Sequence record: NC_073055.1
Source: Escherichia phage vB_EcoD_Opt212
Length of the DNA stretch: 44,488 nt
Direction: 5' to 3' (one strand)
Below the pieces are notes generated by a model, which saw only the letters and a program-made list of their open reading frames with translations, was not told the origin of the DNA and did not search any database. Below, in pieces: positions 3,456 through 41,918 of this stretch. The translations under genes were made by a program, and so were the position numbers. Each line of letters begins with the position of its first letter. The stretch's first letter is position 1.

Positions 3456-3596
3456 AAGTCACCTCACAAATTACCATTCCAATAAATGCCGCGGCGGACC
3501 AGATTGCCAATACCCAAATATCATTACGTGCCATAGTGTAATACTCCTCTTGTTGATTGGTCGCAGTATGGCGCCTATGTTGGTTGCAAGTCAAGC

Positions 3597-4871: not shown

Positions 4872-5159
4872 TTAATCGAAAATGGACCACTTGCCGACGC
4901 CTTTCCACTCCCACCCTTCCGATCGGACGGCCTCGAACATTCGCCTGCCGATCATATCGCGATACCATAGCCACCACATGCGCAACCGGGTAGGGTGCTC
5001 CGTGATGCCACGGCGCTTGTATATCTGAAACGTCATGCGGGTAATGCTGGCGGCTTCCACCGCGGGCCAAATCAGGAATACCCATACCAACAGCGCCAGC
5101 ACCGTAGCAAAGAGTGTCGCGCACCCAAAACCAAACCAATAAATCAAATCGTGTAGCAT
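4872..5159 (-). CDS. membrane protein (95 aa)
   Basis: hydrophobic TM segments; start moved to internal ATG with GGAAGGGG RBS; alternative-frame ORF 4858..5202 looks antisense-like. Confidence 0.4.
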   Translation of the reverse strand: MLHDLIYWFGFGCATLFATVLALLVWVFLIWPAVEAASITRMTFQIYKRRGITEHPTRLRMWWLWYRDMIGRRMFEAVRSEGWEWKGVGKWSIFD

Positions 5160-5264
5160 CGAATTGCCCCTTCCGGTTTGCCAATATGGCGCGCCCATGC
5201 ACGCGCCACGAAGTAATTGCGAAATACCCGACCGCCTATCTCAAAGAGGTTATGCATCAGCATA

Positions 5265-5435
5265 TCACGAATCACAGCCGACACGGGATACGACCTCCAG
5301 ATGTGGGTTATGGCGTGGCGCCCAGTGCGCTTGCTTAGTAGCCACATTACGTAGTTTAACCTGGTAATGGGTTACGGCGACCACCAAGTATAAATCGCGG
5401 GTTAATTTATCCCGCACTAAATCGAATTTATTCAT
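5265..5435 (-). CDS. small hypothetical protein (56 aa)
   Basis: ATG overlaps stop of upstream gene (ATGA coupling); not in ORF track; overlaps alternative track ORF 5144..5347 in another frame. Confidence 0.3.
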   Translation of the reverse strand: MNKFDLVRDKLTRDLYLVVAVTHYQVKLRNVATKQAHWAPRHNPHLEVVSRVGCDS

Positions 5436-5986
5436 TTCAGCACCACACGCAACGGGCTTACGGACTTCATGCTACCGTCGGGGTAGACCAGGAGCACGCC
5501 GATTCCGTGGCGTTTTGCGTCCAGATTAGCCATGCGCATTGCATCGCATTGCTGGGTAATGGCCTTCCGGGCGTTGTCGATATGCTCGCGCACCTTGCTC
5601 TCGTCGTATTTGGTATATGGGTGCTCCGTACGGGTGATCGCTTTCGCCACGACGCCAGGGCGCTTAGGTGTGTAGTTCCGGCCTACGCGGGTGTAATTCA
5701 CCAGGGTGGCGGGGTTAATAGTCGCGCCTGCCACCAGAGTGCTGTCGATAGTAATCCATTCCGTCCCGACTGACTTCACGACCCAGGTGTAGTCATTGCC
5801 ATCACAACGCAGCACATCACCTACTCGTACGTCGTGGTGCACTACCTGCAAATGCTCATGCAGGGTGGCTTTCTTGTACCAGAATACGCGGTCGCTGGCT
5901 TCATGGTACATGCGCACATAGTTCGGCAGCACTTCGATCGGGGTAAGGAATCGCCCATTATGCTTATTGCGGAATATCATTTTCAT
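5432..5986 (-). CDS. hypothetical protein
   Basis: 184 aa; strong AGGAGA RBS; coupled to flanking small genes. Confidence 0.6.
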   Translation of the reverse strand: MKMIFRNKHNGRFLTPIEVLPNYVRMYHEASDRVFWYKKATLHEHLQVVHHDVRVGDVLRCDGNDYTWVVKSVGTEWITIDSTLVAGATINPATLVNYTRVGRNYTPKRPGVVAKAITRTEHPYTKYDESKVREHIDNARKAITQQCDAMRMANLDAKRHGIGVLLVYPDGSMKSVSPLRVVLK

Positions 5987-6147
5987 TCTGTCAATCTCCT
6001 GTAGTTACGAACTAATGTGAGGCGCGAGATAGTGCGGCGAGTACCACACTTAGGGTGTGAAATAGTCACGTTGCCGTTTGCTTCTTCTGTCACGAAGTAA
6101 GTCAGTCGCGTGGCCTTACTCCGCCAGCGTTCAGGTTGCTTGTTCAT
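5983..6147 (-). CDS. small hypothetical protein (54 aa)
   Basis: ATGA overlaps at both ends; GGAG RBS; not in ORF track. Confidence 0.4.
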   Translation of the reverse strand: MNKQPERWRSKATRLTYFVTEEANGNVTISHPKCGTRRTISRLTLVRNYRRLTE

Positions 6148-6728: not shown

Positions 6729-6909
6729 CGTTCAGTCCTCATGTTGGTGTGCAACCAATATTAATCACGCGCATGAAAAAGTTGATCGCTATCTGCTGCA
6801 ACGGCAAACTGCATTTCCCACTCTCCATTATCCAACCCGCATTGGTTGCCTAGTTCATCCGCGACCGCACTTCGCATCATGCTGCCGTGTATTTTGCAAT
6901 CCCCGGATT

Positions 6910-9506: not shown

Positions 9507-9836
9507 TTACTTAGAAGTTTTATTATTGCGTACCCAGGAGCGCACTGTGCTCTGATTAATTCCGGTTAGCTCTGCAATCATCGCCCATGATTTGCCCTCG
9601 GCGCGCAAACGGATAACCTGTTTTTTGTATTCTTCCATTTCTTCATTGTGTTTTTGCAGCTTGCTTGCTGCCGTGCCGTTGAGCAATTCCAGCTTCGCGG
9701 TAAGCTCCTTCTCAGCACGCGATAATCTGGACACTTCAAATAACAGAGTATCCACCGCATTTGTGTAATACCAGGATTTACCCGCTTCGCCGCGGATTGC
9801 ATTAGATAACACTTCAATTGCTTCTTTGATATTCAT
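9507..9836 (-). CDS. small HTH DNA-binding protein (putative regulator)
   Basis: 109 aa; C-terminal HTH (GKSWAMIAELTGINQSTVRSWV); first gene of leftward operon. Confidence 0.6.
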   Translation of the reverse strand: MNIKEAIEVLSNAIRGEAGKSWYYTNAVDTLLFEVSRLSRAEKELTAKLELLNGTAASKLQKHNEEMEEYKKQVIRLRAEGKSWAMIAELTGINQSTVRSWVRNNKTSK

Positions 9837-19179: not shown

Positions 19180-19184
19180 ATTGG

Positions 19185-19213
19185 TTGCATAATCATATTG
19201 GTTGCATTATCTT
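19185..19213 (+). promoter_or_regulatory. candidate promoter (TTGCAT-N17-TATCTT) within tandem ATTGGTTGCAT motifs
   Basis: hexamers read directly; immediately precedes a terminator hairpin, so assignment is uncertain. Confidence 0.3.
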
Positions 19214-19246
19214 AAGGGTGTTCCGAAGGGAACGCCCTTTTTTTTA
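19214..19246 (+). terminator. rho-independent terminator
   Basis: GGGTGTTCC/GGAACGCCC stem followed by T8. Confidence 0.65.
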
Positions 19247-19262
19247 ATATGAGGATTTGACG

Positions 19263-22309: not shown

Positions 22310-22343
22310 AAAAAGGGGCCGCATGGCCCCTTCTATTTATTTC
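22310..22343. terminator. bidirectional terminator between convergent blocks
   Basis: AGGGGCC-GCAT-GGCCCCT hairpin flanked by A-run and T-rich tail. Confidence 0.55.
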
Positions 22344-24502
22344 TTCAACGCCGCGATCTCGGCCTTCAAATCCTCCACCTGCTTATTGAGATATTGAACA
22401 CACCCCATCAAGTCCATTACGATCGGGTTAACGTCGATGGATGGGCGGTCCGTCATCTTCTCCCCGATCTTGTTGCCGTCTTCGTCGAGAATATCCTCGA
22501 TCGGGAACTCGTGGTGCTTAACGTACTGCGGCGCAATTAACTCCGCTTCTTCGGCGATAATACCGAAGCGCTGGCGGGCCTGCTCATCATCCTTATACAC
22601 GAAGTTAACAAGGCGCTGGCTGTTAATGCGGTCCATAGCTTCGCTTGCGTCCGCATCGGCTATATCTTTCTTATACTCGCGGCCGGATGTGCCTTGCAGC
22701 GCGATAGTCCCCGATGCGGTAGTCGGGAAGTTAAGCATAATTTCGCCGGTACGGTTCCCATCCTTACGTCGCATAAACAGGCGAAAATATCGAGTGCCGC
22801 TCTTTTCTAGTGCCGGTTCGAAGAACGTCCTACCGCCTACGACGTCGTTCGGCACGGTTTCGCCTACGGTGTAGTACGGTTCGAATGCAAATTGCAGGTA
22901 AGACCCGCGGCTTACTGCCAGGCTACCAACGACATCTGACCCTGAACTGTTCACCGTAAACTTGCCCGGCAAGGTCATCTCGCCTTTGGTGTTAAAGTCG
23001 ATGCCTGAACTCTGCGCCGTCTCCAGGTTAGTGATCGCCAGGCGGGCGTAAGTCTCACCGTCGATATTCGCACGGACGCGCAGCTTTGCTTCCGAGTGTA
23101 AAGAAGTGCCAACACGATATTCAGACACAATGCTTCCGCCGTCTGCCGTAGTGCCCGCTGGCGGTTTAGTGGCGTCGCCGTTGATTACCGACCACGACGT
23201 ATTAGCGGCGGCGAATCCGCCTGACGCTCGAATAACCCACACGCCCATGAAGTTATTGGGGCGCAACTCCGATACGGTCCGGCCATAGATCGCGTTGACC
23301 TTCGAGGCGTCCATGTTAATGATGCCGTAGGAGACTGCGCCGTTACCAACAGGTAGGTTGCCTGGCGACCGATATTGCGAAGCCGCTCCACCAGCCCCGT
23401 GGAACGCGCCACTTTCATGGTTGATAATACTTGCGGCCCCGCCGCCGTGTAATTCGACGCGGCCTGTGATGTTAGGTGCTCCTGATTCGTAGATATACCC
23501 ATCGTTGCCACTTTGCCCGCCGTCGCCCCTGCCGAACAAGCCGAATATGGACCCAGGCTGAACGCCGTTACGGTCCGGCACTCGGAAGGTAGTTGTGCCG
23601 TCACCCGTAGAATACTTGCCGCGCTGATTTGGGTTAGCCAGCCAGGTATCGTCACTAATTGGCGACAGCATTTGCGCATACGCCCACAACTCAGGCCAAT
23701 CAGCGCGGTTAAGAAGTTGCCCGTCGGATACGACTTCATAAGGCTGGATATATGCGCGGCTGTCCCGTAAATGGAAATCACCTACGCCATAGTTCATGAC
23801 GCCGTTCATTGTAGGGCCAACCGTGCCCACGTTGATAAGGTTCTGCACCCAGCGCTTTGTCGCGGCGTCGTAGTCACCTACAGGGTCGCCCGCCAATGGC
23901 GTTGCCCCGTCTGGTCGAACGTTAAGCCAGGCTTGCGGTTTGTCGGTGAGTCCTGCCAGGTTGCCGGATTTGGTTAGCAGGTTATCCGCGTTAACGCTTT
24001 GCGCCCACTCCTCGGCCTGATCGCGGAATCCCTGCGCTGCGGATTTCGATGCTTCGGCTTGCGCTGCGAGGTCGCGCATCTCAACGGGGTCTACGTTCTT
24101 AAGCAATTCCGACAGATATCCCCATGACATGCCCTGCATAACCTGCCCGTTAGGTAACGTCACTGTGATTTCTTCAGCGTCGCCGAAGATTGCACGCCAG
24201 TTGTTTTCATCTGCAATCATCAAGCGCAATGCTTTTTGCGCCTGTACGGTAACGCCCATCGTTGCCAGTGACATGGTGTCGCGCTTAACACCATCCCAAG
24301 CAAGGCCGGTTGCCGTTGGGCCGTCGAACGGCAACACCAGCGTAAGCGCCGTGTTACTTTCGATTGATGCGATCGCCACTGTGTAAGGCACTTGTCCTAC
24401 CACCAGCGTTAAGAAGTCGCCAGCTTTAAACGCGGTAAACGTTGTGCCGACTCCTACTACCGCCGTGCTATTGTTCGTTACGGATAGCGTACCCGCTGCC
24501 AT
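22337..24502 (-). CDS. side tail fibre with C-terminal intramolecular chaperone (S74-like) domain
   Basis: 721 aa; Gly-rich central region; C-terminal GTSGREYKKDI...RFGIIAEEAELIAP pattern. Confidence 0.7.
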   Translation of the reverse strand: MAAGTLSVTNNSTAVVGVGTTFTAFKAGDFLTLVVGQVPYTVAIASIESNTALTLVLPFDGPTATGLAWDGVKRDTMSLATMGVTVQAQKALRLMIADENNWRAIFGDAEEITVTLPNGQVMQGMSWGYLSELLKNVDPVEMRDLAAQAEASKSAAQGFRDQAEEWAQSVNADNLLTKSGNLAGLTDKPQAWLNVRPDGATPLAGDPVGDYDAATKRWVQNLINVGTVGPTMNGVMNYGVGDFHLRDSRAYIQPYEVVSDGQLLNRADWPELWAYAQMLSPISDDTWLANPNQRGKYSTGDGTTTFRVPDRNGVQPGSIFGLFGRGDGGQSGNDGYIYESGAPNITGRVELHGGGAASIINHESGAFHGAGGAASQYRSPGNLPVGNGAVSYGIINMDASKVNAIYGRTVSELRPNNFMGVWVIRASGGFAAANTSWSVINGDATKPPAGTTADGGSIVSEYRVGTSLHSEAKLRVRANIDGETYARLAITNLETAQSSGIDFNTKGEMTLPGKFTVNSSGSDVVGSLAVSRGSYLQFAFEPYYTVGETVPNDVVGGRTFFEPALEKSGTRYFRLFMRRKDGNRTGEIMLNFPTTASGTIALQGTSGREYKKDIADADASEAMDRINSQRLVNFVYKDDEQARQRFGIIAEEAELIAPQYVKHHEFPIEDILDEDGNKIGEKMTDRPSIDVNPIVMDLMGCVQYLNKQVEDLKAEIAALKK

Positions 24503-24522
24503 AGCTAAATCCTCGTAATTGG

Positions 24523-24550
24523 TTGCAATCCTGGCTGAGCGGTGTAATAC
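24523..24550 (+). promoter_or_regulatory. candidate promoter (TTGCAA-N16-TAATAC) for lipoprotein gene
   Basis: overlaps ATTGGTTGCAA motif in divergent region. Confidence 0.3.
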
Positions 24551-24581: not shown

Positions 24582-24800
24582 ATGAAAACTTTAATTATGA
24601 TTTGTGCGGTTCTTTTGTCCGGTTGCGCCGACATGCCCGCTAAAGTCTGCGACGCCACATACCAGAATAGCGGCATGGATTATGTGGTCCCTGTGTATGG
24701 TGTTGCGGACTTCTCCGGGCATAAAATGCTAAGGGCGGGTTATCCGTTTAGCTTCCAGTACGTGTCGGTAGACCATTTCAAAAACACCACCTGCGAATAA
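24582..24800 (+). CDS. lipoprotein (candidate Cor/Llp-like superinfection exclusion protein)
   Basis: 72 aa; signal peptide with lipobox LLSGC; opposite strand, embedded between tail fibre and tail genes. Confidence 0.55.
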   Translation: MKTLIMICAVLLSGCADMPAKVCDATYQNSGMDYVVPVYGVADFSGHKMLRAGYPFSFQYVSVDHFKNTTCE

Positions 24801-24820: not shown

Positions 24821-25495
24821 TCAATCATAATTGGCCGTGTTAATCGCCATAATCGCGTTGCCGTTGTTAGTATACCCCACCACACCCCCCGTGGCGTTCC
24901 CCGACGACGCTGCCGATATACGCGTTCGCGACCCATCAAATCTGGCCCCCGTGTACGCCGTTACCGATATTACTTGCGGCTGGCCCTGCACAAAAAACCG
25001 GATCAGCGTAGACCCCAATATGCCCGGAGCGACGGCGTAGCTGCCATTTAGCGTCTGGTCAATGTTAATCCCCCCGTTAGCGCCTGGCGATCCGACGGTA
25101 ACTAAATCGCTTAGTACGCGACTCTCATTAGTAAGCACTAGCTTCCCCGTCTTATCCCAAATAGCGAAGCCCCACCGCGGAAGGGTCTGTGGGAATATGG
25201 CAAAGATGTAAGCCGTCATCGTGAAGCCTTGCCCGAATGGATTGCTGGCGCTCACCTTCACCACATTACCAACGCGAGAAGACCCTACGACGGTCGGCCG
25301 GGCGGTGTGCGTAGTTTTCACAAACGCTATTGCAGGGTAGTCACCACCCAAATTAATATCGGCAGCCGCCGACTGCGCAGTGCCGTTAGCCGAAGACCCA
25401 ACAACCACACGGCGGAATAGACAAAACGGCGTCGATTCTGGTGTGATAAACGGGTTGCCGTTTGGTAAGTCAATCAACGCGCCGTAATTAGCCAT
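24821..25495 (-). CDS. hypothetical tail-associated protein
   Basis: 224 aa; Gly/Ser/Thr-rich; coupled downstream of gpJ-like gene. Confidence 0.5.
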   Translation of the reverse strand: MANYGALIDLPNGNPFITPESTPFCLFRRVVVGSSANGTAQSAAADINLGGDYPAIAFVKTTHTARPTVVGSSRVGNVVKVSASNPFGQGFTMTAYIFAIFPQTLPRWGFAIWDKTGKLVLTNESRVLSDLVTVGSPGANGGINIDQTLNGSYAVAPGILGSTLIRFFVQGQPQVISVTAYTGARFDGSRTRISAASSGNATGGVVGYTNNGNAIMAINTANYD

Positions 25496-39816: not shown

Positions 39817-40518
39817 CTACTCGTCGCCCATCTTAGCGATGATTTCACCAGCCTGTTTCGTAAGGTCAGTGATACCGAAGCTGTGGCCCATCGTGATTTT
39901 CGACTTCACATCTTCGACAACCTGCGTCGGTTTGCTAGGCGCGCCGCCTGCTGGCGTGCCAGCCAGGACGGACGCAAAATCGGCGTTATTACGGAACTCT
40001 TTTTCAAGTTCTTCCATAGTCAGCGCGGACGGTTTGCCATCCTGCAAGACACGCACTTTCAAGCTGCCGTCTTCGCCGTCTTCCAGCGTCAGGCGGTCCA
40101 TTACGTGGCGTTGCATGATGCCCGCATTCTTACCGAACAGCTTCGACGCCAGGTCTTTGGCAGCGCTGCCGATGGTTAGATCGTGGATCTGCTTGCGGTA
40201 GGCTTCGATTTTTCCCGATGTGTCTGCTTCGTGTTTCGCAAACTTATCTTTCCAGGACTTGTCGATCGCTTCGAGGTCGCCATTTTTGCGCGCGGCGGCT
40301 TCCTCTTTCTCTTTCGCAAGGCGCTCAGCTTCGGCGCGGCGTTCAGCTTCTGCTTTCTTCTCGCTCACCAGCTTCGCGTTGTTGTCTTTCAGACCCTTGA
40401 TTTCCGCCTGTACTTCTTCTGCGGTCATGAACGTTGATTTATACCCGTCGCCATCGGCAACAAAAAGCGCCTTCATACCTTCCGGCAACGCGTCATATTC
40501 TGCTTTAGTAAGTTTCAT
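39817..40518 (-). CDS. scaffolding protein
   Basis: 233 aa from ATG with AGGGGGA RBS; charged coiled-coil-like sequence (AEAERRAEAERLAKEKEEAAARK); directly upstream of capsid gene. Confidence 0.65.
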   Translation of the reverse strand: MKLTKAEYDALPEGMKALFVADGDGYKSTFMTAEEVQAEIKGLKDNNAKLVSEKKAEAERRAEAERLAKEKEEAAARKNGDLEAIDKSWKDKFAKHEADTSGKIEAYRKQIHDLTIGSAAKDLASKLFGKNAGIMQRHVMDRLTLEDGEDGSLKVRVLQDGKPSALTMEELEKEFRNNADFASVLAGTPAGGAPSKPTQVVEDVKSKITMGHSFGITDLTKQAGEIIAKMGDE

Positions 40519-40608
40519 GCTATCCCCCTGGGATTGTGGCAGAGCAGGCCACCCGCTCGACTTCACGCTTCTAATATTATCAGCGATAAAAATAATCGCA
40601 AAATTCGC

Positions 40609-40638
40609 TTGCAATCCGCGTATTGGTTGCACTATATT
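40609..40638 (+). promoter_or_regulatory. candidate promoter TTGCAA-N18-TATATT with tandem ATTGGTTGCAC motifs
   Basis: direct reading; upstream of plus-strand island. Confidence 0.4.
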
Positions 40639-40667
40639 GGTTGCACACCAACAACGAGGACACAAAA

Positions 40668-41183
40668 ATGAGACTGACAAAAGACATTAAAAACCAGATT
40701 CTGGCTAACATCCTGCGCGACCACGAAATCGCGACCGAAGCCAAATCAATCATGATGGACTCTCGAAATCTGGCGTACGCCATTACGATGGACTGTATGC
40801 CGGAAGGCATTCATTCGTTCGCCGAGCTACGTGAGCGCATTGCAGCAATCGGCGGTGACCCGTCGCAGATGTACGGCGTCTGTGTGTACACCAACAAGGC
40901 GACGTATAGACATGACGCCGACAGCCCATATGGTGTAGGCAGCGTTTACGACGCCACTTTCGAAATCAACGCAGGCGGAAACGTCCGTACCGTGTCATTG
41001 AGCGGAGACGGACACCGAGTCCGAGTATATCGCGGATACGGGGAGTATAAATACATGAATAAACTGTCTCCCGATCTCGGCGATATTGTGCCTGGGTATG
41101 AGGAAATTTTGTTAGCGTCAGTGTGCGAAGTCGATGACGACGGGAAAGCGCTGCCGATATATATATGCCACGCGGTCGTATAG
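40668..41183 (+). CDS. hypothetical protein (opposite-strand island gene 1)
   Basis: 171 aa; GAGGAC RBS; no recognisable motifs. Confidence 0.55.
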   Translation: MRLTKDIKNQILANILRDHEIATEAKSIMMDSRNLAYAITMDCMPEGIHSFAELRERIAAIGGDPSQMYGVCVYTNKATYRHDADSPYGVGSVYDATFEINAGGNVRTVSLSGDGHRVRVYRGYGEYKYMNKLSPDLGDIVPGYEEILLASVCEVDDDGKALPIYICHAVV

Positions 41184-41434
41184 ACTACCCGGCGGACCAT
41201 GATTTCTGTAAGCGCCTGGACCGTAACGACAAGGCCCGCCGTGAGTTGCGTGCTAAGTATGACGCGTTCAAACTAACTGTTACCGGCGTGCTGGATATGC
41301 ACAATACCGATAAGAAGCTGATCAAGGCGTGGCCTGAAGTGGAACAGTTCATTCCTTACCCGGGCAAGCCGAAGTCCACGGCGGTGGCGCTGGACGTGAA
41401 GACGTTAAACGAGATTTGCGGTATTCCGCGCTAA
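41165..41434 (+). CDS. hypothetical protein (opposite-strand island gene 2)
   Basis: 89 aa; overlaps gene 1 by 19 nt; start uncertain. Confidence 0.4.
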   Translation: MPRGRIDYPADHDFCKRLDRNDKARRELRAKYDAFKLTVTGVLDMHNTDKKLIKAWPEVEQFIPYPGKPKSTAVALDVKTLNEICGIPR

Positions 41435-41435
41435 T

Positions 41436-41460
41436 AAAAGGGGCCATTACGGCCCCCGAA
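41436..41460. terminator. bidirectional hairpin between island and spanin genes
   Basis: GGGGCC-AUUAC-GGCCCC; o-spanin stop lies within it. Confidence 0.4.
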
Positions 41461-41686
41461 TTATTTGCTGCAACTCCAGGACCTGCGCCCTCAGCTTCGC
41501 CCCGCATTCCATATTTTTCACGTCAATCATCAAATCTTCGTCGGGGTCCGCGGACGGGTTATCGAACTTGCACGGCGGTCGCAGTGCCGACTCCGTTAGC
41601 GGCATCAACGGCGCTTTGCTTGATCCGCACGCGCTCAGCATCAAAACTGCAATCAGGACGGTTAGGACGCGTAACATATTTAACAA
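41447..41686 (-). CDS. o-spanin (outer membrane lipoprotein, Rz1-like)
   Basis: 79 aa; signal peptide with lipobox LSAC; Pro-rich; start embedded in i-spanin-like ORF. Confidence 0.6.
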   Translation of the reverse strand: MLNMLRVLTVLIAVLMLSACGSSKAPLMPLTESALRPPCKFDNPSADPDEDLMIDVKNMECGAKLRAQVLELQQIIRGP

Positions 41687-41918
41687 CCTCTTTCGTGATA
41701 GTCCGGTATTCTACGTCGCGGGCTTGTTCGGCCTGCACGGAGCGCTCAATAACTTTAGTTTGCTGCCGTTGGGCATCTGCTTGCGCTTCTTGCGCCGCCT
41801 CCGCCGCTACGCCAGCGCGATAGGAGTCACCTAGCCAGAATCCTACCACCAGACCGATAACCAGCCCAATCGCTGCATACTTAATCACGCCATAACCCCC
41901 GGTTTTTAAGCTGTGCAA
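41559..41918 (-). CDS. i-spanin (Rz-like)
   Basis: N-terminal TM (IKYAAIGLVIGLVVGFWLG) then charged helical region; track start is TTG, alternative GTG at 41888 with GGGGG RBS. Confidence 0.55.
   Translation of the reverse strand: MHSLKTGGYGVIKYAAIGLVIGLVVGFWLGDSYRAGVAAEAAQEAQADAQRQQTKVIERSVQAEQARDVEYRTITKEVVKYVTRPNRPDCSFDAERVRIKQSAVDAANGVGTATAVQVR

Follow-up and report, generated by a model that had tools for sequence, protein, structure and literature searches.

Does the short opposite-strand island in the head module of Escherichia phage vB_EcoD_Opt212 carry two genes of its own, or parts of something already known? The island lies at positions 40609-41460 of the 44,488-nucleotide stretch of DNA that was analysed (sequence record NC_073055.1, one strand, 5' to 3'), which is referred to below as the window. 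Two plus-strand open reading frames (ORFs), ORF1 at 40668..41183 (171 aa) and ORF2 at 41165..41434 (89 aa), are present there, as a prediction made earlier from the letters of the DNA had claimed. The locus is real but already known: it is the site of nmad5, a gene that has been annotated and studied experimentally in related phages, and it forms an accessory, moron-like unit that here carries a 2-bp insertion, due either to slippage or to a sequencing error. Judged by alignment, the two ORFs are the halves of this one gene, which normally encodes a protein of 254 aa that belongs to the Pfam family PF18757. It is highly probable, in our assessment, that the locus as a whole is one nmad5 unit, made up of a promoter, the gene and a bidirectional terminator, and that it holds a disrupted allele of a gene encoding an interaction protein.

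Alignment with related phages joins the two reading frames

Nucleotide comparison by megablast, with window positions 40300-41800 as the query, matched 153 phage records, nearly all of them Escherichia Dhillonvirus (HK578-like siphophages). The best match was phage bob (98.8%), and by this comparison the window phage is a Dhillonvirus, an HK578-like E. coli siphophage nearest to bob. Nineteen relatives were fetched for comparison of the locus.

In an alignment to four relatives, GATATATATATG in the window stood opposite GATATATATG in bob, a difference of one extra AT unit. The insertion lies within an (AT)5 run at 41157..41166 on the plus strand; across the 19 relatives compared, bob and SM_W22 have (AT)4 at this position and the others have (AT)3 or an interrupted run. 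The 2-bp insertion produces a +2 frameshift that breaks the gene at codon 165/166 and throws codons 166-254 into the +2 frame. ORF1, which is collinear with bob_33 and with the BF9 protein QXL91292, comprises native residues 1-165 followed by six out-of-frame residues (ICHAVV) and a stop, and ORF2 comprises native residues 166-254, its start being the native Met166 codon. After removal of one AT, the window gene differed from the bob gene by a single base substitution, affecting one residue.

The gene was undivided elsewhere. Each of the 19 fetched relatives had an intact ORF of 254 codons, and the Nmad5 protein was covered to at least 80% by 144 GenBank records. At this position the records of bob, BF9, UDS3lw, GeorgBuechner, SM_S22, SM_A8, SM_W22, PTXU06 and Bas84 each show a single coding sequence (CDS) of 765 nt; it is labelled 'Nmad5 domain-containing protein' in BF9 and, likewise, as an Nmad5 or nucleotide-modification-associated domain protein in UDS3lw.

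Family membership was defined as a score above the curated gathering cut-off of 27 bits against the Nmad5 hidden Markov model (PF18757, 206 positions). Neither product had been credited with a recognisable motif, yet both scored well above the cut-off and did so over different parts of the profile: ORF1 matched positions 1-98 (70.1 bits, 3.6e-19) and ORF2 matched positions 122-206 (107.1 bits, 1.7e-30). The intact bob protein matched positions 1-206 of 206 with 180.8 bits, and also matched PHROG phrog_1965, the function of which is given as unknown in PHROGs. The window does not hold a complete Nmad5 domain in one polypeptide, and its locus is a disrupted member of PF18757.

That the island should hold two distinct, separately evolved small genes, and so be a two-gene moron, is now hardly credible. 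The two ORFs do exist, with a 19-nt overlap, and ORF2 does begin with an ATG; however, they make up the two halves, N- and C-terminal, of a single Pfam domain, the relatives have one ORF, a 2-bp insertion that bob lacks marks the junction, and ORF2 has no properly spaced Shine-Dalgarno sequence. Two separate genes were ruled out by the alignment, the Pfam halves and the intact ORF of the 19 relatives. The result corrects an over-call of two orphan genes to a known nmad5 with a frameshift, which matters little as it stands; for annotation, 40668-41434 should be treated as one disrupted nmad5 gene.

Origin and predicted consequences of the AT insertion

Replication slippage in an (AT)4 run would be the simplest explanation for the extra AT. 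The exact ORF1 product had no match in the protein collection searched, and the exact (AT)5 context was absent from IMG/VR. Because the lesion was unique in these collections and the gene is otherwise undecayed, it is either very recent or a sequencing error. If a sequencing or assembly artefact were responsible, the real phage would have an (AT)4 run and an unbroken nmad5 of 254 aa, the extra AT being an indel error in a short dinucleotide repeat. The uniqueness of the lesion speaks for this, as does the near identity to the bob gene, with only one base different besides the insertion and no further decay. On the other side, errors in a short-read consensus do not typically arise in a dinucleotide run of 10 nt, and since independent disruptive nmad5 alleles are common in the genus and the gene is dispensable, a real lesion would be unsurprising. 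An artefact is accordingly held to be a serious but clearly less probable explanation than a true mutation.

If the lesion is real, full-length Nmad5 would not be made in the window phage without recoding, and the C-terminal module encoded by ORF2 would at best be weakly produced, by re-initiation after ORF1. A more generous alternative is that the split is compensated, with full-length Nmad5, or a working two-piece Nmad5, arising by ribosomal frameshifting (-1), by transcriptional slippage within the AT run or by termination-reinitiation at the overlapping ATG; the C-terminal module alone might even suffice. The arrangement of the two ORFs is suggestive in this respect, since ORF2 lies in the -1 frame relative to ORF1 and starts exactly at the native Met166, 16 nt upstream of the ORF1 stop. 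There are also short family members in which the N-terminal helices and the C-terminal module make up most of the protein, or in which only the C-terminal module is present (P0103, P0082, P0138 and P0159), but these may be fragments or deletion products. No slippery heptamer of the form X XXY YYZ was present in 41150-41183, and no Shine-Dalgarno sequence was found 5-10 nt before the ORF2 ATG. The relatives need no recoding, and to our knowledge slippage of RNA polymerase is known for long homopolymers and not for (AT)5. Compensation of any of these kinds appears improbable to a marked degree. Programmed ribosomal frameshifting was rejected outright, there being no slippery heptamer and the relatives reading a single uninterrupted frame.

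A predicted transcription unit inside the head module

From the signals that surround the gene, 40609-41460 is predicted to be one small plus-strand transcription unit that runs from a promoter through nmad5 to a bidirectional terminator. The promoter-like element noted originally corresponds to a sigma-70-like site at 40609..40638 on the plus strand, with a -35 hexamer TTGCAA (40609-40614), an 18-nt spacer and a -10 hexamer TATATT (40633-40638). A consensus scan gave nine matches out of 12, and both hexamers were kept in all relatives that retain the region, with a spacer of 17 or 18 nt. The tandem motifs before the genes were likewise confirmed: two exact copies of ATTGGTTGCAC are present on the plus strand at 40622..40646 (40622-40632 and 40636-40646, period 14) and are conserved in relatives. 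Of these, one falls within the promoter spacer and the other covers the predicted start of transcription. A Shine-Dalgarno sequence, GAGGA, was read from the sequence at 40656..40660 (plus strand), 7 nt upstream of the nmad5 ATG, and is also conserved in relatives.

Downstream of the gene, the bidirectional hairpin was located at 41440..41456, where GGGGCC-ATTAC-GGCCCC resembles an intrinsic terminator. The scan matched it on both strands and it is conserved in the 19 relatives; its predicted folding energies were -18.6 and -19.2 kcal/mol (z = -2.7 against shuffled sequences). A possible stem-loop in the 5' leader, TTGGT-TGCAC-ACCAA, was discarded because it was not more stable than shuffled sequences (z = 0.06).

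The surrounding genes lie on the minus strand, and the annotations of the relatives name portal, head morphogenesis protein, i-spanin, o-spanin, head scaffolding protein and major capsid protein among them. According to these annotations, the gene that starts at 40521 (minus strand) encodes the head scaffolding protein and those at 41447..41918 (minus strand) encode the i- and o-spanins. The position of the plus-strand ORFs, wedged between minus-strand spanin and scaffold genes, was therefore borne out by the coordinates and by the relatives' annotations. Homology to virion structural proteins had been named in advance as an outcome that would overturn the prediction, and the homology found did not place the ORFs among such proteins. 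No integrase was found among the relatives' annotations and the phage is probably virulent, so that expression of nmad5 from a prophage is not expected.

The o-spanin gene (41447-41686, minus strand) overlaps the hairpin: its TAA stop codon (41447-41449) lies in the terminator loop, and the stem is formed by the final codons of the gene (R-G-P). To arrive at the scaffold and capsid genes, late transcription on the minus strand has to pass this hairpin and continue antisense to nmad5.

Published biology of nmad5

The orthologous gene was studied in the Dhillonviruses SM_S22 (CDS6) and SM_A8 (CDS7) by Yamashita et al. (2025, Commun Biol 8:290; PMC11846954). Escape mutants of both phages, obtained on E. 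coli expressing the KAP-NTPase defence Tmn, carried the substitution K216E in Nmad5; reversion of the mutation restored sensitivity to Tmn and its introduction conferred resistance (PMC11846954). A phage with nmad5 deleted was viable and still sensitive to Tmn, which makes the gene non-essential, and attempts to clone nmad5 in E. coli failed because of toxicity (PMC11846954). The same paper cites Iyer et al. 2013 in terming Nmad5 a DNA modification enzyme (PMC11846954). A role in phage-host conflict in general terms, in line with the functions that the original prediction had named for such islands, is supported by the dispensability of the gene and by the point mutation that gives escape from Tmn (PMC11846954).

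The window locus is orthologous to this determinant of the Tmn outcome, and K216 is present: its codon is at 41315..41317 on the plus strand, corresponding to K51 of ORF2. The residue was invariant among seven homologues of the Dhillonvirus and Hungariovirus types. The mutation is numbered K296E in SM_S22 and K216E in SM_A8, an offset of 80 residues that arises because the SM_S22 GenBank CDS0006 (5005-6009 of that record) is over-extended to 334 aa, overlapping the opposite-strand scaffold gene. The conserved N-terminus MRLT, which is found family-wide, supports the start of the 254-aa form. The paper also has an anti-Tmn gene, its ORF35, and here too the numbering has no clean correspondence to the CDS numbers in GenBank.

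Ksap1, the trigger of KpAvs2 in Dhillonviruses, was also considered as the identity of the locus and was rejected, since it is a different gene of 74 aa that lies between methyltransferase and phosphatase genes.

Purifying selection, recurrent lesions and an accessory slot

Intact copies of nmad5 had a median pairwise ratio of nonsynonymous to synonymous substitution rates (dN/dS) of 0.13, which is indicative of purifying selection. The N-terminal part had a value of 0.175, and the C-terminal third one of 0.055.

At least six independent disruptive nmad5 alleles were nevertheless found in other Dhillonvirus genomes and contigs. In UAE_MI-01 (L024) a stretch of 20 bp is duplicated in tandem near codon 45, Teewinot (L025) has a 637-bp deletion equivalent to window positions 40773-41409, and JL1 retains only a 74-aa nmad5 fragment. 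Among Dhillonvirus contigs, a deletion equivalent to 41135-41400 was found on four contigs from public sequencing runs (L027) and a deletion equivalent to 40631-41244 on another (L029). On a further contig (L028, P0075) an extra gene upstream is fused in frame to nmad5 codon 213, so that the last 42 residues of Nmad5 are kept. The frameshift in the window fits this series of nmad5 lesions.

Taken together, these observations suggest that nmad5 helps on most hosts and is costly or sensed on some. Usefulness on most hosts follows from the purifying selection on intact copies, while a cost, or sensing, on some hosts would explain the repeated rise of disrupted alleles. The toxicity and the link to Tmn that have been published are compatible with a gene that is costly or sensed on some hosts. 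A bolder version, which is offered as a speculation with a small chance of being right, is that Nmad5 is a fold-novel, early-expressed interaction protein that is both sensed by and inhibits bacterial immune systems. The lesions (the AT-slippage frameshift, four deletions, the duplication, and the chimeric fusion that keeps only the C-terminal motif) would then be natural escape alleles from defences that sense Nmad5, and ORF2, with K216, would still be active alone.

The space between the promoter and nmad5 is itself variable. At the equivalent of position 40650 or thereabouts, 10 of the 19 relatives (L006, L007, L008, L015-L020 and L022) carry one of four unrelated extra genes in what appears to be an accessory slot. 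These encode a 104-aa phrog_24635 protein, a protein of 135-172 aa, a 53-aa protein, and a 170-aa protein with weak similarity to the central domain of the beta-clamp (EP23). Where an extra gene is present it is usually followed by a hairpin with a GNRA loop, GGGGCGAAAGCCCC. Presence and absence at the locus in relatives, which had been proposed as a check, therefore does vary, both through these insertions and through the deletion or truncation of nmad5 in Teewinot, JL1 and several contigs. The gene is otherwise near-universal in the genus, and its composition is not atypical (52.7% GC, compared to 54.4 ± 2.7% for the genome in 767-nt windows). With its purifying selection, recurrent loss and gene-swapping slot, nmad5 is a good natural system in which to ask about the function of Nmad5 and the defences that see it.

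Structure prediction and the enzyme label

An AlphaFold2 model of Nmad5, based on an alignment of 83 sequences from diverse family members, had a predicted local distance difference test score (pLDDT) of 91.6 and a predicted template modelling score of 0.84. An earlier model from a shallow alignment was poor (pLDDT 64) and its fold search returned only noise. The new model has a helical hairpin at the N-terminus, a beta-rich insert and a helix of 30 residues (178-209); the conserved motif sits on three short helices at the C-terminus. A fold search with it found no homologue in the PDB, and in BFVD it returned only other phage proteins of the Nmad5 family. A profile search of PDB sequences gave nothing below E = 1, the only matches, at E of about 1, being to Cas8f-HNH. 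No matches were obtained in NCBIfam or PADLOC, and a literature search for PF18757 and phrog_1965 found nothing relevant.

Conserved columns were taken from alignments of 27 and 83 sequences. Across the 83 sequences L217, W221 and N247 were invariant and P222, E223 and L246 nearly so; no conserved set of catalytic-type residues was found across these diverse members. The most conserved motif of the family, TxxKLxxxWPE...LNxxCG[IL]P, lies in ORF2, where K216-L217, W221-P222-E223, L246-N247 and C250-G251-x-P253 are complete (...TDKKLIKAWPEVEQF...TLNEICGIPR). These residues look like a structural or contact motif and not like a catalytic constellation, to judge from their pattern of conservation. 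K216 abuts the motif and may be part of a conserved contact surface of Nmad5.

From the model and the neighbourhoods of its homologues we infer that Nmad5 is probably a non-catalytic, helical interaction protein of the early takeover or DNA-metabolism sphere. With its N-terminal helical hairpin, variable beta insert, long C-terminal helix and strictly conserved C-terminal motif, it would act on host or defence components that are linked to DNA metabolism. In mEp235 the nmad5 homologue lies between Nun and cIII/Kil, in the pL operon. The metagenomic homologues sampled had RdgC and Kil as neighbours, or else a PDDEXK nuclease, an Enc34-type single-stranded DNA-binding protein and Dam.

The published name implies the contrary, that Nmad5 is a genuine DNA- or nucleotide-modifying enzyme, in which case a base modification made by the unit would protect phage DNA and the frameshift would abolish it. 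Besides the name given in PMC11846954, which cites Iyer et al. 2013, this explanation can point to the homologue inside the thymidine-hypermodification cassette of YuA, M6 and SN1 (PMC9476957) and to a homologue that adjoins a DNA methyltransferase in PTXU04. In the sampled contexts only Yuavirus homologues, as in YuA, were placed in such a cassette. Most of the sampled neighbourhoods were early recombination or takeover operons, and the Nmad5 family name therefore rests on a minority context. A hypermodification cassette is not the neighbourhood in the window, where the neighbours are the scaffold and spanin genes. The Dhillonvirus annotations list no genes for an aGPT-Pplase, a 5-hydroxymethyldeoxyuridine (5-hmdU) kinase or a hydroxymethylase, and the whole-genome annotations of Bas84 and SM_S22 have no hypermodification enzymes, listing just small DNA methyltransferases some 20 kb from the locus. 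Neither a catalytic fold nor a solved homologue was seen for the confident model, catalytic residues are not conserved, and it is a missense change and not deletion that shifts the Tmn outcome (PMC11846954). An enzymatic role is thus judged unlikely, and in Dhillonviruses neither structure nor context lends support to the label "DNA modification enzyme".

The reading of the locus as a disrupted nmad5 unit encoding an interaction protein must also be set beside several points that weigh against it. The YuA-type and PTXU04 homologues are among these. The non-enzyme view draws on a predicted structure and on evidence of a negative kind, the lack of any match in fold or sequence. Use of the promoter and the timing of the unit are deduced from sequence features, and the assembled sequence, taken by itself, could fit a real frameshift or a sequencing error. 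Finally, loss of nmad5 is not itself an escape route from Tmn, since deletion leaves sensitivity unchanged (PMC11846954).

A promoter-associated motif shared across the phage

The repeated element in the nmad5 promoter is one instance of a phage-wide motif, TTGGTTGCA (described as ATTGGTTGCA). With at most one mismatch allowed, 10 sites were counted in the window, compared to 1.09 expected, and none of 100 shuffled sequences reached 10. Sites were recorded at 3580, 6218, 19181, 19198, 21109, 24519, 40623 and 40637 on the plus strand and at 6750, 10030 and 21096 on the minus strand. Exact TTGGTTGCA sites number 11-12 per genome in three Dhillonvirus genomes, at orthologous intergenic positions; Bas84 and SM_S22 have 12 exact sites each, also at orthologous positions. 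Nearly all sites are intergenic, often in tandem or inverted pairs and usually with TAnA ahead, and they precede several early-region genes, one of them preceding the Cor gene.

At some sites the motif forms a -35-like TTGCAN hexamer and elsewhere it overlaps the -10 element and the predicted start. Because its position varies relative to the promoter elements, it may be either the operator of a phage regulator or a shared promoter core. A small HTH protein is encoded at 9507-9836. A sigma-54 reading (TGG...TTGCA) was rejected by inspection, as the spacing departs from the -24/-12 geometry, and a literature search for a description of the ATTGGTTGCA motif gave nothing. We infer that nmad5 is expressed from the phage's motif-class promoters. 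The motif ties the nmad5 unit to the Cor exclusion gene and to several early units in what appears to be one regulon. That the nmad5 promoter motif is shared with other units of the same phage is among the points that did not favour the original prediction.

The Cor gene (24582-24800, plus strand) encodes a 72-aa lipoprotein with the signal peptide MKTLIMICAVLLSGC and matches the PHROG Cor superinfection-exclusion family phrog_1119 (3.1e-26); the motif is at 24518-24528. The gene is a second opposite-strand island, this one in the tail module, flanked by the tail-fibre gene at 22337-24502 (minus strand) and a gene at 24821-25495 (minus strand), and it is predicted to be driven by the same type of motif promoter as nmad5. 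At 19181-19260 the tandem motif pair is followed by a terminator-like hairpin, GGGTGTTCCGAAGGGAACGCCC, and then T8, ahead of a gene that starts at 19257. This hairpin may act as a leader or attenuator; alternatively, the gene upstream may have its terminator here, within a promoter region.

Comparison with known systems

The closest known counterparts are the nmad5 genes of SM_A8 and SM_S22. They are orthologues in the same position, on the opposite strand between spanin and scaffold genes, with the same promoter and terminator and with K216. SM_A8 Nmad5 is 94.5% identical in protein sequence to that of bob, which is the repaired window gene bar one residue. The published phages differ in carrying intact nmad5 (wild type or K216E) or a full deletion, whereas in the window the frame is broken at 165/166; SM_A8 also has the extra 104-aa gene upstream of nmad5, which is missing from the window.

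The Yuavirus homologues (YuA gp15, M6 and SN1_019) are more distant. They share the Pfam domain, and the C-terminal 80 residues or so are 38-42% identical, but the Dhillonvirus protein has a larger central beta insert (254 aa, compared to about 186-210 aa in Yuavirus). The Yuavirus cassette includes an aGPT-Pplase, a kinase, radical S-adenosylmethionine and pyridoxal phosphate enzymes and a dU hydroxymethylase (PMC9476957); the Dhillonviruses have none of these, and nmad5 stands alone in the head module.

The broader comparison is with phage morons. A moron is an independently transcribed accessory gene inside a late operon, as defined for HK97- and lambda-like phages, the Cor superinfection-exclusion gene being one example. 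The part of the original prediction that likened the island to these elements stood in several respects: nmad5 is on the opposite strand in a structural operon, is dispensable, has variable content at its locus and is linked to host defence, and its own promoter and terminator are represented by predicted elements, the 9/12 promoter match and the hairpin, both conserved in relatives. It did not stand in others, since the island is not two genes and not an orphan (PF18757, PHROG 1965). Nor does nmad5 look foreign: in contrast to what is expected of a moron, it is compositionally ordinary, near-universal in its genus and under purifying selection, and it resides in a phage that is probably virulent.

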